Shown here in pieces: positions 15,088-50,454 of a stretch of 57,374 nt of DNA (the stretch's first letter is position 1; every line of letters begins with the position of its first letter). This DNA is from Verrucomicrobiota bacterium (GTDB taxonomy: Bacteria > Verrucomicrobiota > Verrucomicrobiia > Limisphaerales > UBA9464). The notes under the pieces are model-generated. The model ran no database searches and was not told the DNA's origin. It saw only the letters and a program-made list of their open reading frames with translations. Both the position numbers and the translations under genes were made by a program. The stretch covers positions 1 through 57,374 of the forward strand of contig JARXAF010000070.1 in assembly GCA_029865985.1 (NCBI GenBank). The letters are read 5' to 3'.

Positions 15088-15108
15088 TTTTGCCTCTCTC
15101 AAACCCAT

Positions 15109-15148
15109 AAAAAAACCCGAAACCCTCACCGGTTTCGGGTTTTTTTTT
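15109..15148 (+). terminator. Rho-independent terminator after ilvB (bidirectional form)
   Basis: AAAAAAACCCGAAACC-CTCACC-GGTTTCGGGTTTTTTTTT. Confidence 0.9.
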
Positions 15149-15268
15149 GGGCATCACAGCCCCACCCCTGCGGTGCCCACCTGAAACACTCCCTTCCGAA
15201 ACAAAATTGCATTGAATTGTCTCTAGGCGCGCGACGTCAGGGGAGATTAGGATTTAGTTCTGAACTGC

Positions 15269-17224: not shown

Positions 17225-18021
17225 GGATCACCACCCATCCCCATCGCAACGCCCGCGGTTTCACCCTCATCGAGGTGGTCCTGGCCATCGTGATCGCTGT
17301 AGGACTCCTGACGGGTGTTCTCGTTTTCTACCGGCAGGCCGCAATCGTTCGTGAAGAAATCCTCCGCAAGGCCGATGCCTTGTCCGCGGTGCGCTTGGTG
17401 ATGGATCGAATCAGCACCGAACTCCGCACCGTCCCTCCCAATACCGCAGGCGTCGCCATCCTTTCCGGGGATTCCCGGTCCCTGCGGATTCTGCACACCT
17501 CGGTGCCGTCGAAGACCCCGTGGCGCGGCGGCAATTTGGGGCGATCCAGTATTGCCGAGGCCGACTGGGTGGAAGTGGCCTACCGATGGTCCTCCGATAC
17601 CAACCAACCCGGGCTGTTCCGTCAGGAGCGGGCCCACACCACCAGCGCTCCGGTATCCACCAATTTGCTCACCGAAGTGGAACCCATCACCGGAAGCGGG
17701 ACCAATTCGATCGTCCCCTCGGGCGGCACTCCCCTGTCTGAATCCATCGCCTATCTCCGATTTCGATATTGGGATGGCTCCCGCTGGCAAAACGCTTGGG
17801 AAAAGCCCGAGCCGCCGACGGCCGTCGAAGTTTCGCTGGGACTGGATCCCATGGAAGAAGACGCCCTCAGTGACTCCACCGGCACTGAAGAACCGGCACC
17901 CTACCCCTACGAAGTCTTCCGCAGAATCATCGCTCTTCCGGCTGCGCTGGGAACCGCGACCGCGCCGTCCGATCCCAATCTCACCGACGACACTCTGACC
18001 AACGAGGTGCCGACGCCATGA
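17221..18021 (+). CDS. Minor pseudopilin, GspJ-like
   Basis: G|FTLIE; MDRISTELR; LRFRYWDGSRWQNAW..PTAVEVSL GspJ-type C-terminus; ATGA overlap with the previous gene. Confidence 0.82.
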   Translation: MRITTHPHRNARGFTLIEVVLAIVIAVGLLTGVLVFYRQAAIVREEILRKADALSAVRLVMDRISTELRTVPPNTAGVAILSGDSRSLRILHTSVPSKTPWRGGNLGRSSIAEADWVEVAYRWSSDTNQPGLFRQERAHTTSAPVSTNLLTEVEPITGSGTNSIVPSGGTPLSESIAYLRFRYWDGSRWQNAWEKPEPPTAVEVSLGLDPMEEDALSDSTGTEEPAPYPYEVFRRIIALPAALGTATAPSDPNLTDDTLTNEVPTP

Positions 18022-19472
18022 CCGCGTTCGGTTCCAAGCCCCATCGGAAAGCGCCGGGGTTCGTCCTCGTGGGAGTGCTCATCGTCGTCATGCTCCTGTC
18101 GATGATTGCCCTGAGCCTGATGTTCCGGATGCGATCTGAGGAGACCGCCGGGGCCACTGGTTCCACAGCGGAACAAGGTTGGGCCACGGCGATGAGCGGC
18201 GTTCGCGAGGCCATGCGATTGGCGCCCACGATCCAACCCGGAGACATCACCTGGATGGATGCCCCAGAACGTTTCAAAGACCGCGTGATGTACAACGACG
18301 GCACCGAGGAGTGGCGCTGGACCCTCTACTCCGCCAACCCCGAAGGCGGCATCCGCTTCGGTCTCACCGACGAAGCCTCCCGGCTCAATCTCAACTCGGC
18401 CACCACCTCGATGGTCAGCCGTCTGCCGGGAATGAAACCCTCACTCACCGACGCCCTGCTCGACTTCCTGGACACCGATGACGTGCCACGACCCGAAGGA
18501 GCCGAACAGGAATACTACAACGCGTTGCCACAGCCCTACCGGATTCACAACGGACCTCTGTCGACCGTTGAACAACTCCTGCTGGTCCGTGGATTCACTC
18601 CGGCTTTGGTCTTGGGTGAGGATGCCAATCGCAACTTCTCCCTCGATCCCAACGAGGACGACGGCGACGAGCGAGAGCCACCGGATGACGCCGACGGACG
18701 CCTCCAACCCGGACTGCTCCCGCTGCTCACGGTGTACTCCCGGGAACCCAATACCGATCGCACCGGCAAGCGCCGTTTCAACCTGAACACCCCCGGAGCG
18801 GCACTCACAGAGACCAACGATTTGCCGGCGGCCTTCGTGGCGTTCGTCGCACAACTTGGCACCTCCAAGAGCGTGGTGATGGATCCTGCCGAACTCCTCG
18901 ATACCACCTTCAACTTGAAGGGGCCGGACGGGCAGGACAGCGCCGTCCCCACCGGCATCGGCAAGGATTCGCTGGCGATGGTTCTCGACCGATTCACAGG
19001 CTCGGCCGACGCCGATCTAGTGGGCCGCATCAACGTCAACACGGCCCCGGCCAGCGTCCTCCAACTCGTACCAGGCATCGACAACGCCCTCGCCGAAAAC
19101 ATCCTCTCGGCCCGACGCAATTTGCCGATCGAGCGGCGCAGTTCCGTGGCCTGGATCCACATCGAGAATCTGGTCGAAGCGGAACAGTTCCGCGAGATCG
19201 CACCGTTCTTGACCACTCGCAGTCTCCAGTTCCGATTCAATGTCGTGGGCTACGGATCCCGCTCGGGCAAATTCCGGGTTTTGGAAGCGGTCATCGACGC
19301 CGTGAGCCAACCCGTGCGTTTGGTCTATCTCCGTGACTTGACCCGCTTGGGGTTGCCATTCCCGATTGAATTGGATTCCGAAGAAGAAAAGCCCTCCTCC
19401 GAAGCGGGTGCCGCGACCCAAACTCGCACCGTCGATTCGGGTCCAAAAACGGCGAATTCCGCCCGCCCCTGA
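18018..19472 (+). CDS. gspK: Minor pseudopilin GspK
   Basis: G|FVLVGVL (no E5, as in GspK); DEASRLNLN; LLDFLDTD..GAE..YY; EQLLLVRG; INVNTAP helix-hairpin-helix. Confidence 0.88.
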   Translation: MTAFGSKPHRKAPGFVLVGVLIVVMLLSMIALSLMFRMRSEETAGATGSTAEQGWATAMSGVREAMRLAPTIQPGDITWMDAPERFKDRVMYNDGTEEWRWTLYSANPEGGIRFGLTDEASRLNLNSATTSMVSRLPGMKPSLTDALLDFLDTDDVPRPEGAEQEYYNALPQPYRIHNGPLSTVEQLLLVRGFTPALVLGEDANRNFSLDPNEDDGDEREPPDDADGRLQPGLLPLLTVYSREPNTDRTGKRRFNLNTPGAALTETNDLPAAFVAFVAQLGTSKSVVMDPAELLDTTFNLKGPDGQDSAVPTGIGKDSLAMVLDRFTGSADADLVGRINVNTAPASVLQLVPGIDNALAENILSARRNLPIERRSSVAWIHIENLVEAEQFREIAPFLTTRSLQFRFNVVGYGSRSGKFRVLEAVIDAVSQPVRLVYLRDLTRLGLPFPIELDSEEEKPSSEAGAATQTRTVDSGPKTANSARP

Positions 19473-19637: not shown

Positions 19638-21317
19638 ATGGGTATTTCTCTCAAAGACCTGAACGAGCGGATCCGCTCCCGAATCCCCGGGGCAGCGGGT
19701 GCCCGTCCCGCCGTGCGTGGGCTCCCCGCGGCGACGGCTCTCGAGATCGATGGCCTCACATTGCGCATCGCCGACGCCTCTCGATCCGGCACCTCAAGCC
19801 GCGTCGATCAGGTTCGCTCCTGCCCTCTGGAATTGCCGGAGAACGCCGATCGGGCGGACGCCTCAGTCCTCGGATCCGCCATCGCCAAGGCACTGGCCAA
19901 GGCCCGCATCAAACCCGGCCCCGTGGTCCTGGGGATCGGTCGTTCGCAAGTCATTCTCCGAACCGTCGTGGTCCCCGACACCGGCCTCACCGGCACCATC
20001 GCCGCACTGGTGCGTTTCCAGGTCGCGCGTGATCTGCCCTTCCGACTGGATGAGGCGATCATCGACTTCCAGATCCTCCGCAAGCTACCCGCACGCCCGG
20101 CCCTGGATGGCGAGGCGACTCAGGCACCGACCACGACCGCCACGGCCACCAACGACTCGGTAGACCGCGTCGAGGCGCTCGTGGCCATTACCCGTCAGGA
20201 GTCTCTCGATTTCCTTCGTCGAGTAGCCGAGGCCGCGGGAGTTTCCCTGGCTGCCGTGGGCTGGTTGTCGCAGGCCAATGCCACCTGTCTCCAACTCGCT
20301 AGCGGCGGCGCGGGCTCGCCTTCAGCCCCCCGCGCACTGGTGGCCCTCAAGTCGGAAGAGGTGGGTATCGAAATCCTGGAAGGCCGCTCCCTGCTCTTCA
20401 GCCGCGGCATGCCCATGCCGTCGTCACTGGACACCGAGCCTGAGACGTGGATCCGCGCCGCGACCATCGAAGTCGTGCGAACGCTGCACGCCTTTGGAGG
20501 CACCGCCGGACGCACCGCCCCAGAAGCGGCTCTCATCCTCGGCGGAACCGGACGTGAGGCGGCGTTGTCGACCGCTCTCGAAACTCGCCTCGGATTCCCC
20601 GTCCCTCAGGTCACCCTGGCTCGTTCACCGGGATTGGACTCTTCTGAGGCCGCCGCCGTCGCCAGCGGATTCACCAGCATCGGTTTGGCTCTGGGGGCCA
20701 CCGATCCGGCGGGACTGGAATTCGACTTCCTCAATCCCAAGCGACCTACGCCCCCGCCGGACTTGCGCAAGATCCGGATGATCGCGGGGTTCACGGTGGG
20801 CTTGGTCATCCTGATGGCGGTGTTGGGTGTGCGCAAAACGCTCATCAGCCGCCGCGAGGCAACCCTCACGGCGCTGCAAGCCGAACTCACCACCGGCGAG
20901 AAGAAACGCACGGTGTACCGCCAGATGATCCAACAGGCCGCCACCCTGAAAGCGTGGTCTGCCGAAGAGCGGGACTGGCTCGACCACTACGCACACCTCA
21001 GCGCCGTGCTGCCACCGAGCGAAGAAATCTACCTGACCAGCGTCGCCTTCGGACCCAACCGAGCCATCAAGCTGGGTGTCCAGGCCCGCAACGGCGAAAT
21101 CCTCGGCAAGGTCGATCGACTCCTCCGCGCCGCCGGTTATGACGTCAAACCTTTGGCCGTCACTCCGGGTGCCGATCGCAACGGCTACAATTTCCGCACC
21201 ACCGTGGAACTGACCGTCCCGGCCAAACTCAAGTTCGACCTCACCAAGCTGACACCGCCAGCCCGACCGGCCGACGACGCCTCGCTGGAGACGCCGCGAA
21301 AGGGAGGAGCCCGATGA
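19638..21317 (+). CDS. GspL/PilM-PilN-like assembly-platform protein
   Basis: Actin-like PilM region (ALEIDGLTLRIA; RFQVARDLPF..EAIIDF; ILGGTG); DFLNP; one TM; coiled coil; WLDHYAHLSAVLP..IYLTSV PilN-like domain. Confidence 0.78.
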   Translation: MGISLKDLNERIRSRIPGAAGARPAVRGLPAATALEIDGLTLRIADASRSGTSSRVDQVRSCPLELPENADRADASVLGSAIAKALAKARIKPGPVVLGIGRSQVILRTVVVPDTGLTGTIAALVRFQVARDLPFRLDEAIIDFQILRKLPARPALDGEATQAPTTTATATNDSVDRVEALVAITRQESLDFLRRVAEAAGVSLAAVGWLSQANATCLQLASGGAGSPSAPRALVALKSEEVGIEILEGRSLLFSRGMPMPSSLDTEPETWIRAATIEVVRTLHAFGGTAGRTAPEAALILGGTGREAALSTALETRLGFPVPQVTLARSPGLDSSEAAAVASGFTSIGLALGATDPAGLEFDFLNPKRPTPPPDLRKIRMIAGFTVGLVILMAVLGVRKTLISRREATLTALQAELTTGEKKRTVYRQMIQQAATLKAWSAEERDWLDHYAHLSAVLPPSEEIYLTSVAFGPNRAIKLGVQARNGEILGKVDRLLRAAGYDVKPLAVTPGADRNGYNFRTTVELTVPAKLKFDLTKLTPPARPADDASLETPRKGGAR

Positions 21318-22315
21318 ACGAGCGCGAAAAGAAACTGCTGTCCATCATCGGAGGTCTCGTCGGTGTGGCCCTGCTCTTCGTGGTCGGCCGCAGCATTTTT
21401 CTCAAACCACTAACCGAAATCGACCGGCGTATCGCGGGCGTGCGCGAAAAGCTCGACCGATTGACCAAGGAACGTCGCGACTACTTTGCCGCCGAAGATG
21501 AAGTGAAGGCCGTTGCCGCGCGCACCTTCTCCGATGACATCGACCAAGCCAGCGCCCGTTTTGGCGAGATGCTCACCCGCACACTCATCAACAGCGGTCT
21601 CCGCGAAGCCGATTTCAGCCGACTCCCCACCGGCACCCGCAAGATCCGGGGTGCACTCGAAACCGGCTGGACGGTTCGCGGAGACGGCCCCCTGCATCAG
21701 GTCGTGAGCTTGATCTTCCTGCTCGATCGCGCGACCCCGGTCCACCGGCTGGACGGCCTGACCCTGTCGCCGTCCGATGCGCCCGGTCGGGTGAAGGTGA
21801 GTTTCCGCTACCTCACGTTGGTGCCGACCCCCTGTCCCGAAGTGGAGCGCGGTGATCTCGAATCCCGACTCAATGCCGAGAGCCCAGACCGCCGCCCCTA
21901 CGATGGCATGGTGGCCCGCGATCTCCTGCGTCCCTACATACCCCGCCCCGCCCCGGCCCCACCGGCCGGACAACCACCGGCTCCGCCGCGCCCGGCTCCT
22001 CCGGGAAGCCCCGGCTTGGAAACCTACCGCTTGGTCTCGTTGTCCGAGTGGGCCGGCGAATCCGAGATCCACGTCCGCGATCTCACCGCCCAAAAGACGG
22101 TCCGCTACAAAGTCGGAGACACCGTTGCCGGCGGAGTCATCGTTCAGGTTGACTACCGACCCATGCCCACCCCGGGCCGGGAAAACGTTCTCTCCGGCAG
22201 CCGGGTCATCCTGCGCATCGGAAACGAATACTGGGCCATCGAGCGCGGTGGCACCTTCGCCCAACGGCACAAACTCAAACCGGAGCAACTGCCCCCGGGC
22301 ATCGCCCAATTCTAA
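21314..22315 (+). CDS. GspM/PilO-like protein fused to a C-terminal GspC-HR-like domain
   Basis: MNEREKKLL + TM (GspM-type); coiled coil; ferredoxin-like VRGDGPLHQVVSLIFLLD; Pro-rich linker; YKVGDTVAGGVIVQV..RVILRIG. Confidence 0.65.
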   Translation: MNEREKKLLSIIGGLVGVALLFVVGRSIFLKPLTEIDRRIAGVREKLDRLTKERRDYFAAEDEVKAVAARTFSDDIDQASARFGEMLTRTLINSGLREADFSRLPTGTRKIRGALETGWTVRGDGPLHQVVSLIFLLDRATPVHRLDGLTLSPSDAPGRVKVSFRYLTLVPTPCPEVERGDLESRLNAESPDRRPYDGMVARDLLRPYIPRPAPAPPAGQPPAPPRPAPPGSPGLETYRLVSLSEWAGESEIHVRDLTAQKTVRYKVGDTVAGGVIVQVDYRPMPTPGRENVLSGSRVILRIGNEYWAIERGGTFAQRHKLKPEQLPPGIAQF

Positions 22316-22333: not shown

Positions 22334-25300
22334 ATGAACATTCAACGGTCCATCCGTCTGGCCATCGCCCTCAGTCTGGGTCTTGGCCTGAGCGTCCCCA
22401 ATCCGTTTGCCCAGGCGCAGACGGCCAGCCCGGGATCTGGCACCACGCCCGCCAAGCCGAGCACCCCCAGCCCCGCTTCAGCCCCGGCGCAGACCACAGC
22501 AGCGACGCCTACCCCAACCAACGCTCCCGCCATCTCCCCGGCCAACGCGAAGAACATCCGATTCCAATTCGATGGGATTCCCTATGCCGATGTTATCGAG
22601 CGCTTCGCCCAGATGTCGGGCAAGCCGGTGGTCGGTGAACTCAACATCCCGGGCACCATCACCTTCAACGACTCCAACGCCTACAACTACGCGGAGGCCT
22701 TCGACACACTCAACGTGATCTTGTCGATGAAGGGGCAGATGATTGTTGAAGAGGGCAATTTCCTGCGCGTCCTCCCGTTCAGGGAACTCCCTCAAACCCC
22801 CCTGCGCATCTTGCGTGGCGGCGACAAGGCCGACGGCGTTCGCCCCGGTGAAGTGGTCACGGTGGTGCTCGACCTCAAGAACCTCGACGCCAAGGAAATC
22901 TCCGAATCCATCACCAACCTGCTGTCCACGGCCGGATCGGTGGCCCCGCTTTCCCGTGGGCGCGGCCTCATCCTCACCGACCGCCTGGTCAACATCCAAC
23001 GGGTCAAGTCGCTCATCGGCTCGGTGGACAACGAAACCGCCGCCCAACGGCAGATGAAGACCTACACCTTGCTCCACGCTTCCGGAGCAGTCGTGGCGGA
23101 CCTCATCAACCGCACCTTCGGAATCACCACCGCCCCGAAGCGCACGCAGTTCAATCCCAACTCCAAGCAACTCGACGTCCTGCCGGCCGATCCCAACGAC
23201 TACGTGACTGCCGTGTACGATGACGCTTCCCGCACGTTAGTCCTCTTCGGACCCCGGGAGCGACTGACGCTGGCCGATGAACTCATCAGCCGTTTTGAAG
23301 ACGGTGGAACCGGAGCCGGTGATGTCCGCATCTACACTCCCGAGGTCATCAAGGCCGAAGAATTGGCCAACATGATCCGTCAAGCCATCCCGGGTGTCGC
23401 CGCCGCCAACGAAACCGGGTCTGCGGCCGCCACCAAGGCACGGGTCATCGCCGAGAAAGACACCAACCGACTGATCGTCGCCGCACCGCTGGCCGGAATG
23501 GCCGACCAGATCGAGGCTCTGGTCAACCGCCTCGACAAGCCCGTCCACGGCTCCGGTCGCACCGCGGCCACCAGCGCTCCGGGCAAGACTCAGGTCGTGC
23601 AAATCACCCGCGTCTTCCGGACTCGCACCTCGGAAGTGAAGAATGTGGGCAAGATCCTGAGCGAGGCTCTCACCAAGACGCTGCCCAATGGCCAGAAGGT
23701 CGCCACCGCCAGTGTCTCGGTGGAACCGGGCAGCCAGAGCATCGTGGTCACAGGGTCCCCCGGCGACGTGCAAACTGCCACCGACATCATCTCGCAACTG
23801 GAGACCGGCTCCACCAATCCCAAGCCGCAGCAAACCCGCTTCATTGACCTCGGCAGCGTCTCCGATGCCAAGCGCATCGTCCCGCTGGTCGAGCAAATCT
23901 ACCGCAGCGAGGTCTCCGGCGACAACGCAGGCGGAGCTGCCCATGCCAAGATCATGGCCGAGCCCAACACCAGTCGCCTGATTGTCACCGCCTCCGAAGA
24001 GCACCTGACCCGCATCGAGGAAATCGTCCGCAACCTGCGCGCCGAGAAGTCCAAACCCCTTCAGCGCTCGCTGCACATCCTGGCGTTGCGCCATGCACGA
24101 CTGGAAACCGCCTTCACCAGCCTCAACAGCCTGATCAACGAGCGCATGGCCGACCGGCGTTTTGAAGACCAGCCGAAGCCTTCGGTGGTCCCCGACAACA
24201 CCAACAACCGGTTGTTGGTCACGGCCACCGAGGAGCAGAAAAAGGAAATCGAAGCAATCCTGGCCGTGGTGGACCTCGCCCCGGAACGCCAGAAACGCCA
24301 GATGGCGGTCATCCCGGTCAACGGCAAGTCCCCCGCCGAACTCATCACCCTCGCCGGACAGATGATGAGCCAACTAGGCGAGCAACCGAGCAATCCCCAG
24401 CTCGAGCCCAAGCTCATTCCTGACGCCTCGGGCAAGCAAATCATCGTGCTGGCCACCGACTCCGACATCCAACGGGTGCGCACCCTCATCCAGCAACTCG
24501 ACGCCACCACGACCTCGGCGGTCAGCCGTCAGTTCCGCAACGTCGAACTGCACAACCGAAACGCGGCCGAACTCACCCCGTTGGTCCAGCAACTCTATCA
24601 GGAGCAAATCAAGGGCAACAGCGAGCCCCCCGGCGGCCCCGCCACCCTCATGACCGATGCCAAAAACAATCGCATCATGGTCAGCGGTGCCGAGCGGGAA
24701 ATCACTCGCGTAGAGGCCATCATCCGCCAGTTGGATCCCGCAGGTCAGAAGAGCGCCAAGGAGGAAACCCGCATCATCCGTCTCAAGACGGCGGTCGCCT
24801 CGGAAATCTCCAGCCTCGTGGAAAAGAGCCTCGGCTCCCAAACCCAAGCCGTGAAGGTGCTGGTCGATACCCGGAGCAACAGCTTGGTGATCACGGGCGA
24901 ACCAGCCGCCGTCGAAGCCGCGGCCAAGATCATCCGCGAACTCGACGTGCCTTCCGACGTGCAGCCCCGCGAGATGAAGGTCATCGAACTCAAGCAAGCC
25001 GACGCGGCGGCACTGGCCACTCTGGCCACCACCCTCTCCACCGACCTGCTCAAAAGTCAGCGCGGTGCCGAGTACACCCCCAAGGGCCGCATCATGCCCG
25101 ACCCGGCGGCCAATCGGGTGATCATCTCCGCTCCGCGTGAGGAGATCACCCTCATTTCCCAAGTGGTGGAACGCTTGGACCAAGCCCCGGAAGCGGCCGG
25201 CGGTGCGCGGGTGTTTCGCCTGACCAACGCCGATGCGTCCCAGGTGGTCAGTGTGGTCTCCAATGCCATGGTGAAGTTCGATGCCCGCAATCAACCCATC

Positions 25301-28300
25301 CGCCGGGCCTCGGTTTCCCTGGATCGCGAATCCAACAGCATCGTGGTCTCGGGTTCCCGTCAGGATTTGAAGGATGCCGAGGGCATCATCCAGCGCCTCG
25401 ACAATGAAGGAGTCGAAGGCTCCGGCGGGACTGGAGGCGGCTCCAAGAACCGCAGCCTGAAGATGGTGGAAGTGGTCGGCGAACCCGACACGCTGGCTCA
25501 GGTGGCCACCCGAGTTTTTCTGGCTCAGAACGCAGGACGCTCGGTGACCAACTTGGTGAGCATCACCCCGGAACCCAACGGTCGCCGCCTCATCGTGCTG
25601 GCCCCCGATTCGCTCATGGCGCAGGTGGAGACGGTCATCTCGGCGCTCGACGCCCGCCCGGATCAATCGCAGCGCCAACTACACACCATCGAACCCCAAG
25701 GCAGCCGAGCCGCCGACCTGCTGCCCATGGTCAACAAGATCTACGCCGAGCAAAACCAAGGACGCACCACCAAGCCAGCGACCTTGTACACCGATCCCTC
25801 CGGCGATCGGTTGATGGTGTTTGGCACGGCGGATCAAGCGGCGGCCGTTCGACAAATCGTCACCACGGTGGCCACCGAACTCCCAGAGGCCCGCACCAAC
25901 CGGGTGTTTGAAATCGGCAAGCCCGCCGAGGCCCAGCGCCTGCTCCCCATCATCCAGCAACTGTACAAAGACCAGGCCTCCAGCCGCCCCTCCGACGGCC
26001 CCGCCGACACCCAACTGCTCACCGAACCCCGCTCCGGACGCATCATCGCCTCGGGCCGCGCCTCCCACCTGGACCGCATCTCTGAAATCATCAACAACCT
26101 GAAGGCCACCAGCGGCACCAACCTCGGCCGCGAGACGCGCACCTTTGAGGTCGGATCGGCCAGCGATGTCCAGCGGGTGCAACCGCTCCTCCAGCAACTC
26201 TACACCGACCAGTGGAAGGAACGCGCCGACACCGACCCGGCCGACGCGCAAATCCTGGGCGACCCCCGAAGCGGCCGCATCATCGTCACGGGCCGCCCCG
26301 ACCACCTGCAGAAAATCGAATCCATTCTCCAACAATTGGGGACCAGCCCGGCCAAGCCCGGTGCTGACTCCCGAGATGTCCGCATCATCGATCTGGCCAC
26401 CGCCACCGCCTCGGAACTGGCCACGACGGTTCGCTCCCTCTACCTCGATCAGGCCAAGGCACGCTTTGGCACTACCCCGCCCGACACCACCATCACCTCC
26501 GACACGGGCAGCAACCGACTCATCGTCGTGGGCGAAACCAATGAACTGGCCGTCATCGACGACCTCGTTCGCAAGCTCGACAAGGTGGGCTCCCAGAGCG
26601 CGACGGCCCGGGTGTTCAAGATCAAGTCTGCCGAACCGGAGAAGGTGGCCGAGGTGCTGTCCACGGCGCTGGTGCGCTACGACGCCTTCGGCCGGGCCCA
26701 GAAGCGGGCCACGGTTTCCGTGGATGCCAAAAGCCGAACGATCATCGTCACCGGCGACCCGAAGGAACTGCAGGCCGTCTCTACGATCATCGAGCAGCTC
26801 GACACCTCTTTGGGCGCACGCCCGGACCGCCGCATGAAGGTGGTGACCCTGCGCCAAGGAAAGGTGGGAGAAATGTCGGCCCGGGTCCGCCAACTCTACA
26901 ACGACCAGTCCCGCAACCAGCCGGACTTGGCTCTGTCCGATTTGCTCGTCTTGGATGACGCCACCAGCAACCAACTCATCCTCGCCGGCAGTGACGCTCA
27001 AATTACCCTAGTCGACACCATCCTGGAACAACTCCAGAAGAGCACCGCCACGCTAGGCCCTCGTGAAACCCGGACCATCACCGTGGGTCAACCCGACGAC
27101 GTGATTCGGGTCATGCCCTTGCTCCGCCAACTGTACACCGAACGGTGGAAAAACCAGGACGCCGCCGACCCGGCCGATGCGGTGTTCACGCCCGATGCCC
27201 CCAATGGCCGCATCTTGGTCACTGCCCGGACCAATCACATTACTGAGATCGAGTCGCTCCTGAGCGTCATCCAGGCTCCCACGGCCACCCCGGCAGCACG
27301 CGAGACCCGCGTGCTGAATCTGGCTGAACGGCAAGCCACCGAATTGGCAGGGACGCTCCGCTCCCTCTATGAAGAATCACTGAAAGCCAAACCGGTTCCG
27401 CCTTCCGAACAAGCGATCATCCGAGCTGATACCGAAGGCAACCGCCTCATCGTCACCGGCCGCACCAATGATCTCGATCAAATCGCAGCCTTGGTGCTCA
27501 ACCTCGACACGGCCAATCAGCGCTCGGGCAATTCTCGCATTTTCCGGCTGACCAACGCCGAACCTGCGCAGGTCGCCGCGGCCCTGTCGAACACCCTGGC
27601 CAAGGTGGACCCCTCCGGTCGCCTCACCCCGCGAGTCACCCTCGGTGTGGACAACAAGGCGCGCACCCTCGTCGTGTCGGGCGAGGCCAAGGACCTGCAG
27701 GCTGCCGAGCAAATCGTCACCCAACTCGACGCCACCACCAGCCGCGAGCCCCGCGACCTGCAGATCCTGGCCATCCCGCAAGGTTCCGCCTCGGAGGCCG
27801 TCGCCCGCATCCGCCCGCTGGTGATGGATCGCCTTAAGGCCTCCGGCAATGCGGCTGACCTCGTCCTGATTCCCGACGACAACCAATCTCGGGTGCTGGT
27901 GACCGCCAACGAGTCTCAATGGAAGGCCGTTCAAGACATCGCCTCCCGCCTGCTCACCACCGAGACCAACCTGATCCGCGGCGTGCGCACGCTGCCCTTG
28001 CAACATGTGACGGCCGCACCGGTCATCACCCTGCTGGGGCAACTCTTCGCTCGCGAGATGGCTCTCACCGAATCTGCCCAGCGTCTGGTGGTGACGCCGG
28101 CACTCGACGAGCGCTCCCTGCTGGTCAGTGCGCCGCCGGCCCTCTTCGAGCGGGTTCAATCGGTCATTCAATCGGTGGACGCCTCAGATCCGGGCGGCTC
28201 ATCGGTGCTTCAAACCGTGTTACTCCGCAAGACCGTCGCCGAGACCGTGGCCGAATCGGTCAACAAGGCCATCGCCGGCAAGGGCACCGACGCCAAGCTG

Positions 28301-31300
28301 CGCCGCGTCAGCATCACACCGGTCACCGGGGCCAACGCATTGTTGCTCAATGGCCCGGGCGAGGCCGTCCAGGAAGTGATGAAGCTGGTCAAGGAACTCG
28401 ACGCCGAGAGCGCCACCGGTGAAGTCGAGGTGCGCATTTACAAGCTCAACAGCGCCAACGCGACGGACATCCAACCGGTCCTCTCCCAATTGCTGGCCAA
28501 TGTGAGCACCCGGCTCGAACGTCGTGGGTTCGGGTCCCGAGCCCAACCGGCCATCGCCATCGACCCTCGCTCCAATAGCCTGCTCATCACCGCCTCGGCC
28601 ACCCACTTCAAGCTCATCGAGCAACTGCTCCCCACGCTGGACAAAGCGCCGGAGCGTTCTGATCGGGATGTCCAATTTGTCTGGCTGCAGAATGCTCGCG
28701 CCGCCGATATCCGCATGAAGGTCGCCGCCGTCTATGAAGAGCGCCCGCGGGGCGAACAACCCGTCCTGGAAGTGGACCGCGAGGCCAACACCCTGACGGT
28801 GATCGCCCGCCGCTCCGACATGCCGCAAATCCAGGACTTGATCCAACGCCTGGACACCTCCGCCCAGGACAACAGCCTCCAAGTCCGACTGCTAACGGTC
28901 GACGACGTGCCGGTCGAACAAATGATCGGGATGCTGACCAATATTTATCCGCAGATGTATGGGGCCTCGATCAAACTGGTGGATCGCTTGCCATCGCTGG
29001 ATCGGACCAAGACCAACAATCCCGCCAAGACGCCCGAGGTCACCGTGGCCCTGGACCGGAATGCCAACGCTTTGATCCTCTCGGGCCCGGCTCCGGAACT
29101 GGACCGGATCAACCGCATGGTCACCGACCTTTCTTGGAAGGCCACCTCGGGCGAAAGCGACTTGCGCATTCTGGCCCTGAGCCAAGCCGACCCGGTGGTC
29201 ATGGCCCGCACCCTGAACAACGTCTTCCGTGCCGGTGGCGGTCGGGGTGGTCAGCCCGAGCCCCAACCCCAGCAAAGCCAACGCCCGCCGCGCTTCACGG
29301 TCGTGCCCGAACCCCGCTCCCGAAGCCTGCTGGTCCGGGCCTCTGCCAAGGATTTCTCCATCATCGAGACGCTGGTCAAACAACTCGACACGGCCAATCC
29401 CGCCGCCGACTTGTCCCACCGGCTGATCACCCTCACCCACACCCCGCCGTCCAAGATCACTCCGCTGGTCCAGCAACTGGTGCAGCAACTCAGCGCCCAA
29501 CATCCGGGGGATCCGCTCACGGTATTGCCCTACGGCCGGTCCAAGGGACTGCTGGTGGTGGCTCGTGAACCGCTCATCGCCCAGGTGGAGAAAATGATCA
29601 AGACCCTCGATACACCGAGCGAGGATGCGGAAGCCGAAGTCCGGGTCTTCACGCTGAAGCAAAGCGCCGCGCCCGCCATGGCGACGACGCTCCAGAACCT
29701 CCTGCGCCCGGGAGCCGCTGGTGAGGCAGGATCCGAGGCTCGTGAACTCCAGGAACAGGTCCGCAAACTCAACATCCGGAGCGACTCGGGAAGCCCGGTG
29801 GCCCTCGACCTCCAGCGTCCCATCAAGATCACGGCCGACCCCAGCGACGGCAACCGCCTGCTCATCACCTCCACGCCGAAGAACCTCGAGGCCTTGAGCA
29901 AGGTTGTGGAAATGCTCGATCAGGTGGGTTCGGCCGAAGCGGCCGACTTCGCGGTCGTGGCCTTGCTCCACGCCGATGCCCGCACCACGGGCCAGACACT
30001 GACCACCATCTTCACCCAAGGAGCCAGGCTGGGCACCCGGCAAGATGGCCCCGGCAAACCCGAGGCCGGATCGGCCCGGGCACTGGCCAGCCAACTGAAC
30101 GTCACGGCCGATGCCCGGCTCAATGCCCTGATCCTTTCCGGCCGCAAAGACTCCATCGAATTGGCCCGCAAGCTCATCAAGGACCTCGACAAGCAATGGG
30201 ACTCCGCCGTCACCGAGGTGAAGGTATTTCGGGTGAAGTACGCAACTCCCTCGCGCCTGCTGCCCATGCTCCAATCGGTGTTCACCGAAGGTCCGTCGGT
30301 GCCGGGAACCGAAGGACTCAACAACTACGTCAGCCGGCTGCAAACCCGCCGCGAAGGGGGCAAGGCTGTCTCCACCGAGCAGGCCAAGACCCGCACGGCA
30401 CTCACCCTTCAGGCCGATGACAACGTCGGTGCACTCATTGTGGCTGCCCGCGCCGACACCCTGCCCCTCATCGAAGAACTCCTCACCCAACTCGATATTC
30501 CAGACGCCTCGGGCCTGAGCACCGTCCGCATTTATCCCCTCAAGCACGCCGACGCCACGGCCGTGCAGAAGATCATCACCGATCTCCATTCCGGGGCGCG
30601 GAACGCCAATGCCAAACCCAGCGACCGGCCGACCATCACGCTGGATGACCGCAGCAACTCGATGATCGTCTCCGGCAACGACAAGGCCTTCGCCATCATC
30701 GACAACCTCATCGCCCAACTCGACAAGCCCATGGCGCCCGAGTTCCGCGACATCCGCATCCTGCCCTTGGCCCATGCCGATGCGGCCCAATTGGCGGCGA
30801 CATTGCAGCGCCTGATGGATCAGCGCGTGACCCGTCAGGGGAGTCTCGGCAAAGGCCAGGGCGACGGCTTGAAGGTGCTCGTGCTGCCCGAACCCCGTTC
30901 CAACAGCCTGCTGGTCGGTGGTGGCAAGGACGCCTACGAACTGGTCGAATCCCTCGCCCGCAAGCTCGACGACGCCGCCCCGAGCCTGACGGGCGGAGTG
31001 CGCATTGTGCCCCTGGAATACGCCGATGCCCGCATCCTTGCCGCCTCCTTCAACCAACTCTTCACCCAGCGCTATCAGGCGAGCACCTCACCGGAGGTCC
31101 AGCGCCAGAAGCCGGTCATCCTGCCCGACGCCCGCGTCAATGCGCTCATGGTCTCCGCCGGTCGCGAAGACAACGAAACCATTGATGCCCTGCTCAAGAA
31201 GCTCGATCGCAAGCTCGACAACCCCTCGCTGGCCCTGACCGTGCTGCCCCTCAAGCACAACGACGCCGCCAAGGTGGCCGTGACTCTTGAAGGCGTCTTC

Positions 31301-34186
31301 GCCGCCCGCATGCAGGCGCGAACCTTGCCCGGCCAGGCCCCCTCCCCCACCGACCGGGTGGAGATCCAAACCGACAGCCTCAACAACTCGCTCATCGTCT
31401 CGTCCAACAAGGAGAACCTCGACCTCATCAAGGACTTGCTCACCCGCATCGATGTGGAACCCACGGTCGCCGAGGGCGTGTTGGAAACCTTTGTCCTCAA
31501 GCACGCCGATGCGCAGCGCGTGTCCACCATGCTCAAGAGCCTGGTGCAACAAGGCATGTACCGACCCGGCCGCTCCGACGTGAAGATCCCAGGTCAGGCC
31601 AGTCGCGATGCCATGGCCATTGCCGTCGATACCCGGAGCAACACCCTCATGGTCTCGGCCAGCCCCGACAATCTTGGGCTCATCAAGGAGATCATCGCCA
31701 AGGTCGATACGCTGGACTTCGTGGCCGCCACCGACTTGAAGGTCTACAAACTGGAACACGCGCGGGCCTCCAACCTAGCTGGCGTGCTCACCCAATACTT
31801 GCAGGCTCGCAAAGCGGCCGATACGGCCTCGCTCAACGCCCCTGAGCGCAGCATGCCGGTGGCCGTCATCGCCGACACCCGCCTCAACGCCATCCTCGCC
31901 ACCGGATCCAAGGAAGCCATCGACATGCTGGACCGCATCGTTCCTCAGCTCGATGCCGAGGATCGTCTCGCCCAACTGAACTTCCGGGTCTTCCCCCTCA
32001 AAGAGGCCACCGCCATCCGGTTGCAAACCACCTTGCAAAACCTCTTCGCCAACCGCCCGCCCAAGGCACGGGGTGAGCCGGTGGACCCCATCACCGTCGT
32101 GGCCGACGCTTGGGTGAACGCCCTCATCGTCGGAGCGGTCGTGGAAGACATGTCCATGGTTGACGGCCTCATCAAGCGGCTCGACACACAGCAAGCCGAA
32201 CTCGGCCTGAAGGTCGAAGTGATTCCCCTGGCCAAGGCCGACGCCCGTAAGGTGGCACAAACCGTCCAAGGCCTCTTCCGCGAGGGCACCCAAGGCGGAC
32301 CGCTGCCCATCGTGGTCACCGCCGATGAACGCGTGAACGCACTCGTCGTTTCCTGTGGCAACACCGACCTCAAACGCATCCGCGACGTGGTGGCCAAACT
32401 CGACACCGACCAGACCGCCCGTGTGAGCGAGATCCGGGTAATCCCCCTCAAGTACGCCCGCGCCGAGAACCTGACACAGGTGCTCAATACCTCGCTCAAT
32501 TCCAAGATCGCCCCACTGTCCGACCTGAGCCCCAACGCGCAGTCGGTGCTGCAATTCGTCACCCGGACCGAAGACGGCCAGGAACTCGTGACCGCCGCGC
32601 TCAAGGAAGCCATTTCCATTACCCCGGATCCGCGCATGAATGCTCTCGTGGTTTCCGGCCCGGTGGACTACATGGGACTGCTTGAGCAAATCGTCGGCCG
32701 CCTCGACAACAGCTCATCGCGGGAAGCCAAGATCCGCGTCTTCTCGCTGCGCAATGCAGATGCTCAACAAACAGCCCAATTGCTGTTGTCGATGTTCCGC
32801 ATGCAGGCCACGGGTGCGGCCGTGGCCGGCACAGGCCAGCGGACCATCCAATACACACTCATGAGGCCGGCTGCCGACGGCACCGAAACCCCCTCGGCCA
32901 CCGCCGTGATCGGCTCCGAGGAGCAAACAGCCTTGAGCGTCAGTGTCGACCCCCGCACCAACACCTTGTTGATCGGTGGCACCGAGCATTACGTGGCCCT
33001 CGTCCAACAAATCATCGAGACGCTGGATTCGTCCGAAGCCTTGGAGCGTAAAACCGAGGTGTATCGCCTCAAAAACGCACAAGCTCCGGATGTCGGCACC
33101 GCCATCCGAAGCTTCCTCGACCAAGAACGCCAACGGGTCACCCAAGTGCTCGGCACCGACGCGGTCGGCACGGCCCAACGTCTCCTCGAACGCGAAGTGG
33201 CCATCGTGCCCGAGCAAGTCAGCAACACCTTGCTGCTGTCCGCCAGCCCGAGGTACTTCGAGCAAATTCACCAAATCATCGAAGAACTCGATCAGGCCCA
33301 ATCGCAGGTTCTTATCCAGGTCTTGCTGGCGGAAGTCACCCTCGACTCGAACCGCGACCTGGGCTTCGAGTGGAGCTTCACCAAGAACATCGGCAACGGA
33401 TGGAATGTCGGTTCGAAGACCGACTTCGGCGTCCCCACCCAGATGCAGAACTTCGGCGGCTATTCCGCTCTGGTCACCGGCAACAACATGAGCTTCCTGA
33501 TGCGGGCTCTGGAAAATGACGGTCGCGTGGAAGTGTTGAGCCGGCCGCAAATCCTCACCGCCGACAACAAGATCGCCTCCATCAACATTGGACAACGAGT
33601 CCCGATCATCACTGGAAGTTCCACGACCCCCCAAGGTGGACAAATCAACACCTTCGACTACCGCGACGTGGGCGTGAATCTGACGGTCACCCCACGCATC
33701 ACCGGCGAAGGTTTTGTGAAGATCGACGTGGGTGCCACCAACAGCTCCCTGGCCAGCTCCAGCGTGGAGATCAACGACAAGGCCACGGTGCCCATCATCA
33801 ACGAACGTCGTGCCTCCACCACGGTCACCGTGCAAAGCGGTCAAACCGTGGTCATCGGCGGACTCATCGGCACCGTCGATGACATACGCCGCAAGAAGAC
33901 TCCGTTCCTCGGCGACATCCCGGGCGTCGGTTTCTTCTTCCGCAGCTCTTCCAAAAAATCGGAGCGCCGAGAACTCCTCATCATGCTCACCCCTCAGGTC
34001 CTCACGGCCAATCACGAGCAAGAGCCCAAGATCACCACCATCGGGAACTACTCGACCCGCATGCTGGAGAAGTCGACCCTTCGTGGAGCCGAGCGCAAAG
34101 ACCCCTTGAAGATCCAGTTGATGGATTCGATCTTCCCCAACGACATCAACGCCTCCAAGACCAACGCGCCCGCCGACAAAAAGTGA
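22334..34186 (+). CDS. gspD: Giant secretin (GspD-like), 3950 aa: signal peptide, N0, about 43 NolW/Secretin_N repeats, secretin core
   Basis: N0 (IRFQFDG..VIERFAQMSGK..GTITF..LNVIL); repeats of R-x-F-x-L-K-x-A-x-A...D-x-R-x-N-x-L-I-V...I-x-x-L-D; core QVLIQVLLAEV, VLSRPQILTADN, DVGVNLTVTPRI, SGQTVVIGGLI, PFLGDIPGVGFFF, ELLIMLTP. Confidence 0.95.
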   Translation: MNIQRSIRLAIALSLGLGLSVPNPFAQAQTASPGSGTTPAKPSTPSPASAPAQTTAATPTPTNAPAISPANAKNIRFQFDGIPYADVIERFAQMSGKPVVGELNIPGTITFNDSNAYNYAEAFDTLNVILSMKGQMIVEEGNFLRVLPFRELPQTPLRILRGGDKADGVRPGEVVTVVLDLKNLDAKEISESITNLLSTAGSVAPLSRGRGLILTDRLVNIQRVKSLIGSVDNETAAQRQMKTYTLLHASGAVVADLINRTFGITTAPKRTQFNPNSKQLDVLPADPNDYVTAVYDDASRTLVLFGPRERLTLADELISRFEDGGTGAGDVRIYTPEVIKAEELANMIRQAIPGVAAANETGSAAATKARVIAEKDTNRLIVAAPLAGMADQIEALVNRLDKPVHGSGRTAATSAPGKTQVVQITRVFRTRTSEVKNVGKILSEALTKTLPNGQKVATASVSVEPGSQSIVVTGSPGDVQTATDIISQLETGSTNPKPQQTRFIDLGSVSDAKRIVPLVEQIYRSEVSGDNAGGAAHAKIMAEPNTSRLIVTASEEHLTRIEEIVRNLRAEKSKPLQRSLHILALRHARLETAFTSLNSLINERMADRRFEDQPKPSVVPDNTNNRLLVTATEEQKKEIEAILAVVDLAPERQKRQMAVIPVNGKSPAELITLAGQMMSQLGEQPSNPQLEPKLIPDASGKQIIVLATDSDIQRVRTLIQQLDATTTSAVSRQFRNVELHNRNAAELTPLVQQLYQEQIKGNSEPPGGPATLMTDAKNNRIMVSGAEREITRVEAIIRQLDPAGQKSAKEETRIIRLKTAVASEISSLVEKSLGSQTQAVKVLVDTRSNSLVITGEPAAVEAAAKIIRELDVPSDVQPREMKVIELKQADAAALATLATTLSTDLLKSQRGAEYTPKGRIMPDPAANRVIISAPREEITLISQVVERLDQAPEAAGGARVFRLTNADASQVVSVVSNAMVKFDARNQPIRRASVSLDRESNSIVVSGSRQDLKDAEGIIQRLDNEGVEGSGGTGGGSKNRSLKMVEVVGEPDTLAQVATRVFLAQNAGRSVTNLVSITPEPNGRRLIVLAPDSLMAQVETVISALDARPDQSQRQLHTIEPQGSRAADLLPMVNKIYAEQNQGRTTKPATLYTDPSGDRLMVFGTADQAAAVRQIVTTVATELPEARTNRVFEIGKPAEAQRLLPIIQQLYKDQASSRPSDGPADTQLLTEPRSGRIIASGRASHLDRISEIINNLKATSGTNLGRETRTFEVGSASDVQRVQPLLQQLYTDQWKERADTDPADAQILGDPRSGRIIVTGRPDHLQKIESILQQLGTSPAKPGADSRDVRIIDLATATASELATTVRSLYLDQAKARFGTTPPDTTITSDTGSNRLIVVGETNELAVIDDLVRKLDKVGSQSATARVFKIKSAEPEKVAEVLSTALVRYDAFGRAQKRATVSVDAKSRTIIVTGDPKELQAVSTIIEQLDTSLGARPDRRMKVVTLRQGKVGEMSARVRQLYNDQSRNQPDLALSDLLVLDDATSNQLILAGSDAQITLVDTILEQLQKSTATLGPRETRTITVGQPDDVIRVMPLLRQLYTERWKNQDAADPADAVFTPDAPNGRILVTARTNHITEIESLLSVIQAPTATPAARETRVLNLAERQATELAGTLRSLYEESLKAKPVPPSEQAIIRADTEGNRLIVTGRTNDLDQIAALVLNLDTANQRSGNSRIFRLTNAEPAQVAAALSNTLAKVDPSGRLTPRVTLGVDNKARTLVVSGEAKDLQAAEQIVTQLDATTSREPRDLQILAIPQGSASEAVARIRPLVMDRLKASGNAADLVLIPDDNQSRVLVTANESQWKAVQDIASRLLTTETNLIRGVRTLPLQHVTAAPVITLLGQLFAREMALTESAQRLVVTPALDERSLLVSAPPALFERVQSVIQSVDASDPGGSSVLQTVLLRKTVAETVAESVNKAIAGKGTDAKLRRVSITPVTGANALLLNGPGEAVQEVMKLVKELDAESATGEVEVRIYKLNSANATDIQPVLSQLLANVSTRLERRGFGSRAQPAIAIDPRSNSLLITASATHFKLIEQLLPTLDKAPERSDRDVQFVWLQNARAADIRMKVAAVYEERPRGEQPVLEVDREANTLTVIARRSDMPQIQDLIQRLDTSAQDNSLQVRLLTVDDVPVEQMIGMLTNIYPQMYGASIKLVDRLPSLDRTKTNNPAKTPEVTVALDRNANALILSGPAPELDRINRMVTDLSWKATSGESDLRILALSQADPVVMARTLNNVFRAGGGRGGQPEPQPQQSQRPPRFTVVPEPRSRSLLVRASAKDFSIIETLVKQLDTANPAADLSHRLITLTHTPPSKITPLVQQLVQQLSAQHPGDPLTVLPYGRSKGLLVVAREPLIAQVEKMIKTLDTPSEDAEAEVRVFTLKQSAAPAMATTLQNLLRPGAAGEAGSEARELQEQVRKLNIRSDSGSPVALDLQRPIKITADPSDGNRLLITSTPKNLEALSKVVEMLDQVGSAEAADFAVVALLHADARTTGQTLTTIFTQGARLGTRQDGPGKPEAGSARALASQLNVTADARLNALILSGRKDSIELARKLIKDLDKQWDSAVTEVKVFRVKYATPSRLLPMLQSVFTEGPSVPGTEGLNNYVSRLQTRREGGKAVSTEQAKTRTALTLQADDNVGALIVAARADTLPLIEELLTQLDIPDASGLSTVRIYPLKHADATAVQKIITDLHSGARNANAKPSDRPTITLDDRSNSMIVSGNDKAFAIIDNLIAQLDKPMAPEFRDIRILPLAHADAAQLAATLQRLMDQRVTRQGSLGKGQGDGLKVLVLPEPRSNSLLVGGGKDAYELVESLARKLDDAAPSLTGGVRIVPLEYADARILAASFNQLFTQRYQASTSPEVQRQKPVILPDARVNALMVSAGREDNETIDALLKKLDRKLDNPSLALTVLPLKHNDAAKVAVTLEGVFAARMQARTLPGQAPSPTDRVEIQTDSLNNSLIVSSNKENLDLIKDLLTRIDVEPTVAEGVLETFVLKHADAQRVSTMLKSLVQQGMYRPGRSDVKIPGQASRDAMAIAVDTRSNTLMVSASPDNLGLIKEIIAKVDTLDFVAATDLKVYKLEHARASNLAGVLTQYLQARKAADTASLNAPERSMPVAVIADTRLNAILATGSKEAIDMLDRIVPQLDAEDRLAQLNFRVFPLKEATAIRLQTTLQNLFANRPPKARGEPVDPITVVADAWVNALIVGAVVEDMSMVDGLIKRLDTQQAELGLKVEVIPLAKADARKVAQTVQGLFREGTQGGPLPIVVTADERVNALVVSCGNTDLKRIRDVVAKLDTDQTARVSEIRVIPLKYARAENLTQVLNTSLNSKIAPLSDLSPNAQSVLQFVTRTEDGQELVTAALKEAISITPDPRMNALVVSGPVDYMGLLEQIVGRLDNSSSREAKIRVFSLRNADAQQTAQLLLSMFRMQATGAAVAGTGQRTIQYTLMRPAADGTETPSATAVIGSEEQTALSVSVDPRTNTLLIGGTEHYVALVQQIIETLDSSEALERKTEVYRLKNAQAPDVGTAIRSFLDQERQRVTQVLGTDAVGTAQRLLEREVAIVPEQVSNTLLLSASPRYFEQIHQIIEELDQAQSQVLIQVLLAEVTLDSNRDLGFEWSFTKNIGNGWNVGSKTDFGVPTQMQNFGGYSALVTGNNMSFLMRALENDGRVEVLSRPQILTADNKIASINIGQRVPIITGSSTTPQGGQINTFDYRDVGVNLTVTPRITGEGFVKIDVGATNSSLASSSVEINDKATVPIINERRASTTVTVQSGQTVVIGGLIGTVDDIRRKKTPFLGDIPGVGFFFRSSSKKSERRELLIMLTPQVLTANHEQEPKITTIGNYSTRMLEKSTLRGAERKDPLKIQLMDSIFPNDINASKTNAPADKK
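22850..33300 (+). repeat. Array of about 43 divergent ~80-aa secretin N-domain repeats (protein level)
   Basis: Manual count of beta-alpha-beta-beta-alpha units between residues ~173 and ~3655. Confidence 0.85.
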
Positions 34187-34737
34187 TGGTCCTTCACCGA
34201 TCTCAACTCCGCATCCCCCCCGGCGCTCGGACGCTGGGATTGTCCCTGATGCTGGCTGCGAGTCTGGGCTCCGGTTGCTCAACCGGCAGCTCGGGCGGCT
34301 CGGTGGCCGGCAGCACCCAAAAACGATCCCACCGCTCTTCCGGCATTGTGGAATTGCACCTGCTCACCATGCCGGTGGCATTGAATCTGGACGGCGTTCC
34401 CGGTCCGGACGGTGTGGCCGTCAAGCTGTTCGCCAATGTCGGCAACGCCACCAAACCTGCGGCCATCCGCAGCGGTGAGATTGAAATCGTGCTCTTCGAC
34501 GGATTGCTCGACGGCAACAGCAATCCCCTTCCCAAGCCAGCCCACATCTGGACCTTCACAGCCAAGGAGCTCAAGGAATTCGAGACTCAGGCCATGGTGG
34601 GCACCGGTTATCAACTGACCTTGCGTTGGGGATCCTTCAAGCCCAAGAGCGACCGCGTCAGCGTGATCGCCCGTCACCCCATTGGAGAGGGGCGCTACTT
34701 GTACTCCACCCCCGGAGTCATCGCCTGCGCTCCCTGA
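34186..34737 (+). CDS. Lipoprotein, candidate pilotin or secretin accessory protein
   Basis: Lipobox LGSG|C followed by a Ser/Gly linker; ATG overlaps the secretin TGA (TGATG); beta-rich domain. Confidence 0.7.
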   Translation: MVLHRSQLRIPPGARTLGLSLMLAASLGSGCSTGSSGGSVAGSTQKRSHRSSGIVELHLLTMPVALNLDGVPGPDGVAVKLFANVGNATKPAAIRSGEIEIVLFDGLLDGNSNPLPKPAHIWTFTAKELKEFETQAMVGTGYQLTLRWGSFKPKSDRVSVIARHPIGEGRYLYSTPGVIACAP

Positions 34738-49188: not shown

Positions 49189-49332
49189 TGCGTCCGTTTC
49201 CAGAGCACAGGACAGCAGCTATCGGTCCAAGTTGCTTTCGAGCCGTAATGACGGTGGTTTCTAAACCTTCCTCATCCCCAACAGGAAAACCCTGCCGGGT
49301 CACCCGAAGTCCCGGGGGGAAACCTGCCGAGA

Positions 49333-50448: not shown

Positions 50449-50454
50449 GGTGCT

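Follow-up and report, generated by a model that had tools for sequence, protein, structure and literature searches.

The window analysed here is a 57,374-nucleotide stretch (positions 1 to 57,374) of contig JARXAF010000070.1 from a Verrucomicrobiota bacterium (assembly GCA_029865985.1; Limisphaerales, UBA9464), which holds, at the end of a gsp operon, the gene for a giant secretin. The product consists of 3,950 amino acids (calculated mass 426.6 kDa) and is encoded by the longest open reading frame (ORF) of the assembly; the base composition of the gene resembles that of its flanks. An earlier examination of the letters alone (hereafter the sequence-only reading) had described one uninterrupted frame with a signal peptide, a Pro/Thr linker, an N0 domain, about 43 repeats counted by hand (residues ~173-3655) and an intact secretin core. 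That description holds: no stop occurs across 22334-34186, the signal peptide and the linker (Pro/Thr/Ala in composition) were seen again by eye, and a profile iterated on the protein's own repeats gives exactly 43, covering residues 170-3656. The features of the gene, in window positions, are the following.

22334..34186, + strand: giant secretin gene, 3,950 aa; ORF without internal stop; assigned with Pfam, NCBIfam and the own-repeat profile
22334..22549, + strand: signal peptide up to about residue 28, then a Pro/Thr/Ala linker up to about residue 72; both read by eye
22550..22783, + strand: N0 domain (about residues 73-150); PF21305 at E = 2.9e-5, below the cut-off; similar to N0-N1 of solved GspD chains
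22841..25882, + strand: repeats 1-13, fixed-order block adjoining N0; exact order in 77 of 85 Verrucomicrobiota-type homologues
25877..28189, + strand: repeats 14-23, length-variable spacer with a four-repeat cassette (15-16-17-18 / 19-20-21-22)
28190..33301, + strand: repeats 24-43, fixed-order block adjoining the pore; exact order in 74 of 85 Verrucomicrobiota-type homologues
29618..30505, + strand: repeats 30-32; conserved insertion of 42 residues in the helix 1-strand 2 loop of both 30 and 32 (candidate internal gates)
32411..33037, + strand: repeats 41-42; conserved loop insertions of 41 and 48 residues, likewise candidate internal gates
33302..34018, + strand: secretin core (outer-membrane double barrel); PF00263

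The giant gene product belongs to the GspD-type secretins of type II secretion and has 43 modules of the N1 type. The Secretin domain PF00263 occupies residues 3725-3890 (E = 3e-49; 167 bits against a cut-off of 27.5), and the closest solved chains of the core are PulD (6hcg, E = 6e-43) and GspD (5wq7, E = 3e-41). At the other end, the Pfam match to N0 spans residues 85-146 and stays below the threshold (24.3 bits against 27), and the N0-N1 region matches solved GspD/PilQ chains (E = 5e-6), including the GspD chains 5wq8, 5wq7 and 6hcg (E = 6e-6 for GspD chains). Among the NCBIfam models, that of GspD ranks first (TIGR02517, 1172.7 against a cut-off of 351.35, a score inflated by the repeats), with the PilQ and SctC models far below it. 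No AMIN domain was found in the protein with Pfam, and the export genes located 13 kb away score as flagellar FlhA, FlhB and FliP, so that the linked injectisome expected of an SctC secretin is missing. The protein departs from GspD in size, with 43 domains and 3,950 residues in place of three N1-type domains and about 650 residues, which we treat as a variant feature. The core is followed by a 55-residue tail, and a gene for a lipoprotein of no known family adjoins.

The 43 repeats are contiguous, with gaps of at most 14 residues throughout, and the Pfam run that had been proposed earlier as a check returned 42 Secretin_N stretches and one Secretin domain. The repeats have diverged from one another, with a median pairwise identity of 24% and a highest value of 49%, and the repeats detectable in the DNA of the gene are short and degenerate, so that a collapsed or duplicated assembly is not plausible. 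A search with the C-terminal 500 residues gave 631 proteins of 2,172-6,913 aa among 1,705 scored candidates (120 listed), and a search from a 6,038-residue homologue gave 564 among 1,043 (120 listed; the longest listed has 6,165 aa, in a length window of up to 10,567). The 200 distinct homologues that we compared, a set that excludes 15 near-identical or fragmentary rows (P0002-P0016) and rows with the first repeat before residue 60, carry 34-66 repeats with a median of 44; the giant genes read in 24 genomes of the same order encode 29-56. The giant secretin family is real and uncharacterised, with database labels limited to GspD or 'secretin N-terminal domain-containing protein'.

The gene is intact and under purifying selection in every block: dN/dS against five relatives is 0.04-0.07 overall and 0.02-0.13 for the blocks where it is computable. 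The sequence-only reading had argued from the divergent, frame-intact repeats against artefact and decay, and the 200 homologues, these ratios and the river and lake assemblies of both DNA and RNA bear the argument out. At least 64% of sampled words are present in twenty public river, lake and freshwater studies, six of which are on record as RNA; the giant gene is covered by contigs of three RNA runs and one DNA run, with no single contig spanning it whole. These RNA contigs are no proof of transcription, and differences in RNA depth between genes were left unused, as contig depth cannot rank genes; a promoter scan gave no signal above chance. It is extremely improbable that the long form has no function of its own, whether as a misassembly, through selfish expansion of its repeats or because the product is trimmed to a secretin of normal size, and conservation largely refutes this explanation. 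Independent assemblies, at 76-96% identity, show the same 43 repeats in the same order, dN/dS remains below 0.13 in every block, the DNA depth over the gene is even (15-33) with no frame-changing indel listed inside it, and trimming would cost the platform-binding domain because N0 lies at the far end of the array. The observation that could be cited in its favour comes from one homologue (G406, L056:10832-13630), in which adjacent cassettes share about 930 identical bases, reflecting either a very recent copying event (duplication or gene conversion) or a local error of the assembly.

Every repeat has positional orthologues across the homologues, and the array is divided into fixed and variable portions. 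In 84 scorable homologues, the spacer corresponding to repeats 14-23 ranges from 8 to 22 repeats compared to 31-34 in the remainder; it lengthens by the four-repeat cassette and shows the highest dN/dS of the array (0.06-0.13). The last 14 repeats (30-43) are shared with Phycisphaerae-type homologues, and 30-37 and 39-43 appear in exact order in 19 of 19 planctomycete-type proteins, a group that we assigned from names and repeat pattern. Among 97 further homologues, the order is kept for repeats 30-33 in 91, 30-37 in 85, 39-43 in 83 and 41-43 in 96. Conserved insertions of 31-48 residues in the helix 1-strand 2 loop are found in repeats 2, 30, 32, 41 and 42, and these may be additional gates, because extended N-ring loops form a second gate in Thermus PilQ. 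A 54-repeat secretin (G456, L048:665-15469) combines eight tandem copies of repeat type 8 with five copies of one three-repeat cassette, a different route of expansion.

The remaining genes of the operon, all on the same strand, surround the secretin in the order G-H-I-J-K-L-M-D, with the secretin last and the lipoprotein gene behind it.

15269..15814, + strand: gspG, major pseudopilin, 181 aa; TIGR01710 at 100.2 bits, over the cut-off of 88.85; T2SSG
15851..16744, + strand: gspH-like minor pseudopilin, 297 aa; N_methyl and GspH, weak; conserved position
16790..17224, + strand: gspI-like minor pseudopilin, 144 aa; TIGR01707 at E = 1e-4, below the cut-off; conserved position
17221..18021, + strand: gspJ-like minor pseudopilin, 266 aa; PRK08808 at E = 3e-4, below the cut-off; conserved position
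18018..19472, + strand: gspK-like minor pseudopilin, 484 aa; T2SSK_1st and HHH_3; NF037980 at E = 1.5e-23, below the cut-off
19638..21317, + strand: GspL/PilM-like platform protein, 559 aa; PilM_2 at E = 4.5e-9; conserved position
21314..22315, + strand: GspM-like membrane-anchored protein, 333 aa; has a 23- to 40-residue Pro-rich linker and ends in a beta domain
34183..34737, + strand: lipoprotein, 184 aa, from a family without a name; may be a pilotin or a belt protein; its start overlaps the secretin stop

The minor pseudopilins GspH, I, J and K each match their own model, all below the curated cut-offs, and their order is conserved. In 24 relatives, the operon block is adjacent to the secretin gene in 17 (read only to H or K in three), interrupted in one and located elsewhere in six; in five split genomes tested, which include three of those six, both the cognate gspF and the M-like gene lie elsewhere. 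A dedicated gspE-gspF pair precedes gspG in many relatives, and the dedicated GspE is found in 54 of the 57 genomes that carry a giant secretin versus one of 143 non-carriers, the contig of which ends inside gspJ. The GspM-like protein follows the giant even more closely (57 of 57 carriers, none of the 143 others); in both counts kin are not independent. An unlinked prepilin peptidase (PF01478) scores over the cut-off on another contig, C36. The dedicated GspE of one relative (G333, L037:8246-9913, - strand) starts with an MshE-type c-di-GMP-binding motif (NF053729, 35.6 bits against a cut-off of 38), which is why c-di-GMP may control the giant-secretin machine.

The GspM-like protein shows weak T2SSM similarity in 3 of 16 members and a T2SSM_b match in one (E = 7e-6); its C-terminal domain has no Pfam or PDB match and is the putative GspC-HR-like partner of N0. 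In 16 aligned copies it measures 326-347 aa while the secretins span 29-56 repeats, and the gene forms a single match of about 960-1,030 bases in 53 genomes, besides two split copies and three copies with an insertion in family f62. Because this partner keeps its length, the secretin alone would set the distance between platform and pore if the C-terminal domain binds N0. The f62 insertion (L090:2138-3766, G301) adds 190 residues to the M domain rather than the linker. The lipoprotein carries an invariant Cys32 in 20 of 20 sequences and is encoded directly 3' of the giant secretin in 23 of 24 relatives, the contig ending at this point in the 24th. The family numbers 640 representatives at E = 1e-10; searches of Pfam and PDB gave no match, and the look-alikes in the Atlas are hypothetical proteins of Verrucomicrobiota and Planctomycetota. 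A search for cargo found no non-gsp gene that recurs beside the operon in more than four relatives' loci.

The giant shares with the secretins GspD, PulD, XcpQ, ExeD and EpsD (6hcg, 5wq7, 5wq8, 5wln and 6i1x; 15-mers) the series of N0, N1-type repeats, core and short C-terminal tail, the best PDB matches, a gene that closes a gsp operon including pseudopilins G-K, and, judged from relatives, a dedicated GspE and GspF. Unlike them, it has 43 N1-type domains (29-66 in the family) instead of three and 3,950 rather than about 650 residues, with position-specific repeat types, a variable cassette and long conserved loop insertions in five repeats, and it is accompanied by a GspM-like protein fused to a putative HR domain and by a lipoprotein unlike known pilotins.

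The same genes bear on the suggestion, distinctly unlikely in our view, that the giant is a real tube that guides a long surface filament, such as an adhesive or polymer-pulling pilus, possibly displaying the genome's pilin-like proteins. The protein in the GspL position scores as PilM, the genome encodes 54 prepilin-motif ORFs, mostly of one expanded type, and two unlinked PilT-like ATPases, a long filament would cross a long neck more easily, and dextran is bound by planctomycete fibres (PMC5394234, partial text). Nevertheless, the pilin is GspG by the cut-off, by score the dedicated ATPase is closer to GspE (623.5, cut-off 630) than to PilB (559, cut-off 676), and the locus encodes neither PilT, which is also missing among the conserved neighbours, nor an AMIN domain. 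Furthermore, the fibre-bearing crateriform pits sit where the membranes are close (same source), and no Planctomycetia name occurs among the named matches listed. The prepilin-motif ORFs of the host genome share, for the most part, a near-identical N-terminus and are scattered singly over many contigs.

Close relatives are freshwater metagenome-assembled genomes of Verrucomicrobiota, and the named homologues, among the matches listed, belong to Limisphaerales/Pedosphaera-type Verrucomicrobiota and Phycisphaerae. Most rows are nameless, and no cultured isolate is named among the matches listed or in 20 clusters looked up. Several freshwater assemblies titled Akkermansia (L001, L008, L010, L011, L016 and L017) hold the operon at 85-99% identity; the titles look like mislabels, being at odds with the lake origin of several of these assemblies. 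In a quick, midpoint-rooted tree of 45 chosen rows, the planctomycete-type proteins stand apart from most Verrucomicrobiota-type ones, and we make no claim on the direction of transfer; a search aimed at planctomycete loci gave one Verrucomicrobiota-type operon only, and the Phycisphaerae gene order was not seen. The giant clade is present in 57 of 200 genomes of the same order, patchily inside families, and was not detected in 300 genomes from other orders of the phylum, in which the best match has E = 4e-48 and the 150 matches listed, with 283 weaker ones outside this list, correspond to open frames under 1,400 aa.

Carriers also keep secretins of ordinary size. The host genome contains three further secretin-domain genes with open frames of 643-1,003 aa and a further gsp operon in which a normal-type secretin is cut by the contig end, and in each of five other carriers three or four secretins of normal length are present. 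A complete gsp operon of normal size on contig C49 was considered as part of the giant system and set aside as a separate one, its GspE being present in 134 of 200 genomes and missing from the carrier families f62 and f96. The sequence-only reading had proposed that the giant bridges the enlarged periplasm of bacteria of the Planctomycetes-Verrucomicrobia-Chlamydiae (PVC) group. As a general need this is weakened, because no giant was found in the 300 sampled genomes from other orders or in 143 of the 200 from the same order, and carriers retain normal-length secretins; by the latter token, a tube would probably serve a special site rather than a generally wide periplasm. For the proposed prostheca, stalk or very large cargo no evidence was found.

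How the repeats are packed can be approached from the junctions and from covariation. Across 9,917 junctions the linker has a median of 12 residues (11-13 at the 5th-95th percentile), does not exceed 16 in 98% and never exceeds 30; junctions 21-40 of the giant have linkers of exactly 12 residues, compared with 9-11 in GspD and PulD when counted likewise on alignments. A profile of the mid-array cassette aligns unbroken across N1-N2-N3 of GspD (5wq7 residues 137-324, E = 3e-17). Mean-field covariation in 9,809 repeats (effective number 5,176; 1,663 pairs ranked) recovers the expected sheet register and sets both helices on one face. The sheet face opposite a repeat's own helices (the back face) is hydrophobic also more than 25 repeats from the pore (position 56 in 96%, position 10 in 75%), and position 56 is hydrophobic in 42 of the 43 repeats of the giant. 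Helix 1 is coupled to this face by pairs 27-47 (rank 17), 24-49 (rank 27) and 24-56 (rank 30), of which 27-47 and 24-56 persist in the far-distal repeats (more than 25 from the pore). Packing between copies fits these data, because covariation ties helix 1 to the hydrophobic back face, and the support that they lend to it is moderate and indirect. Linker length, back face and covariation are consistent with stacked rings throughout the array.

These observations have to be set against an unlikely alternative, in which only the pore-proximal repeats (about 30-43) form a plain ring stack and the rest folds back as a second wall, or makes a wider chamber or flexible cargo-gathering arms, resulting in a length far below 120 nm that fits a moderately wide periplasm. 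Such a folded neck is compatible with the unevenness of the array, where fixed stations (1-3, 24-28 and 30-43) alternate with variable spacers, with normal secretins functioning alongside in carrier cells, with the hexamer-of-dimers arrangement of N0-N2 in XcpQ crystals (cited in the available part of PMC6532946), and with the lower hydrophobicity of back-face positions 8 and 10 in distal repeats (64% and 75%) compared with proximal ones (90% and 96%). In contrast, the linker lengths leave no long hinge, the couplings between helix and back face recur in distal repeats, and the free gain and loss of cassettes in the spacer suits a linear stack better than a closed cage.

Among secretins of known shape, PulD measures 20 nm in length and has three N1-type rings, and the HR domain of PulC binds N0 at its base (PMC6882859, partial text). 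The PilQ of Thermus thermophilus, as described in the accessible text of PMC5745081, is a 13-mer of 35 nm with six N rings (N0-N5) that spans a wide periplasm, and the extended loops of one N ring form a second gate. The giant thus resembles PilQ in that extra N1-type rings would cross a wide periplasm and that N-ring loop insertions may form gates; unlike the giant, PilQ serves a type IVa pilus and DNA-uptake system, has five N1-type rings instead of 43 and, in the same text, no reported variable cassette. The crateriform structures of Planctomycetia (PMC5394234, partial text) are also large outer-membrane complexes that link both membranes of PVC bacteria, but there the inner membrane lies near the wall, and the named members of the giant family come from Limisphaerales/Pedosphaera-type Verrucomicrobiota and Phycisphaerae.

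We lean, without great assurance, towards a straight ring-stack tube of about 120-160 nm that belongs to a dedicated type II machine and works at a special site with widely separated membranes. On this model, the secretin would be exported and 12-15 copies would assemble in the outer membrane with the help of the downstream lipoprotein (a 15-mer has a calculated mass of 6.4 MDa), each repeat packing on the same repeat of neighbouring subunits as N1-N3 do in GspD. The GspM-like protein would use its short-tethered C-terminal domain to dock N0 on the inner-membrane platform, so that the number of repeats would set the platform-pore distance, and this distance would be tuned by gaining or losing the four-repeat cassette. 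The dedicated GspE-GspF motor would extend a GspG pseudopilus up the tube, pushing folded cargo out; the long conserved loops of repeats 2, 30, 32, 41 and 42 may serve as further gates. The special site could be an invagination of the inner membrane or a protrusion of the outer membrane, and the tube itself may hold the spacing. A bolder extension, possible but in our judgement somewhat doubtful, is a gene-ruled secretin nanotube of 6 MDa and 100-200 nm, multi-gated and with the repeat count setting the distance from motor to pore, that builds its own compartment, either as a strut that crosses an invagination or as the core of a spike on the surface. Its hosts would be Phycisphaerae and abundant, uncultured Verrucomicrobiota of fresh and marine waters.

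Several points weigh against the straight tube. The length depends on a rise per ring of 2.5-3.5 nm that is our own assumption; at this rise, 43 rings would extend 120-160 nm and the family 85-240 nm. The sequence-only reading had expected a tube more than ten times the normal length: the ring number is indeed about 14-fold higher, whereas the estimated length is only about 6-8 times that of a 20-nm secretin. We know of no pseudopilus that works over 100 nm. The GspC-HR label of the C-terminal domain of the GspM-like protein comes from a motif and from position; the domain has no profile match. The dedicated gspE-gspF pair was not found in the present assembly, which is 92% complete (best matches 51% and 35%); the absence is likely an assembly gap, because 21 of 23 congeners carry the GspE and in the closest ones it is unlinked. 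Within the covariation analysis, which is a mean-field one read after the fact and without coordinates, coupling 24-49 drops to rank 419 far-distally, 24-49 and 24-56 are weak in the last 15 repeats, and only four repeat-to-next-repeat pairs (z of 5.6-7.4) beat the best k,k+3 control pair (z of 5.4); the hydrophobic back face could instead be covered by the same chain folded back. Even in short secretins N0-N2 are flexible (PMC6532946, partial text).

A literature search, with subscription journals and supplements outside its coverage, gave no description of secretins with tens of N domains, and the remark in the sequence-only reading that enlarged secretins are reported in PVC genomes found no counterpart there. 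Giant secretins are not mentioned in the accessible text of PMC11573180, 10.1101/2023.11.21.568195, PMC13608581, PMC11131199, PMC3422733, PMC6668835 or PMC12475490, the supplements of which may list such proteins. The longest characterised secretin that we found, in sources seen in part, has six periplasmic rings and is termed one of the largest known. New here are the map of fixed stations and variable cassette, the recognition of a dedicated GspE and GspF, the finding that the partner co-occurs exactly with the giant, the linker of invariant length, the candidate gates and the covariation. Members of the family have 29-66 ring-type modules, are under strong selection and come together with a motor, a platform and a lipoprotein of their own; they occur in over a quarter of one order's genomes and also in Phycisphaerae. 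Should the rings stack, the distance served by a type II machine would be several times longer than any studied, which would raise the questions of how a pseudopilus piston travels over 100 nm, how a 6-MDa ring assembly forms in the periplasm and whether secretins set membrane spacing. The model predicts a specific structure that tomograms of PVC cells should show, and the protein would be a natural example of a modular nanotube.

Some further genes and elements of the genome were noted along the way. A 3,904-aa LamG/Ig/PA14 surface protein on contig C61 was tried as a dedicated partner and rejected: 33 of the 57 carriers have members of its family, but so do 47 of the 143 non-carriers. In this protein (L028:34-11745), with LamG, Big_9 and PA14 domains, an unannotated 600-residue C-terminal part defines the family, which comprises proteins of 2,200-4,800 aa in 80 of 200 genomes of the order, with up to six copies each. 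A 637-aa ORF (L024:7633-9546; C81:21632-23545 of the host genome) joins a BlaR1/M56-like start, recognised by eye, to a secretin-domain match behind a BlaI-like repressor gene. In the window, a strong hairpin with flanking A/T runs at 15100-15150, between the acetolactate synthase gene and gspG, is by eye a likely two-way terminator, and flhA, flhB and fliP occupy 47080-52932 on the - strand, the fliP ORF having about 260 extra N-terminal residues before the FliP domain.

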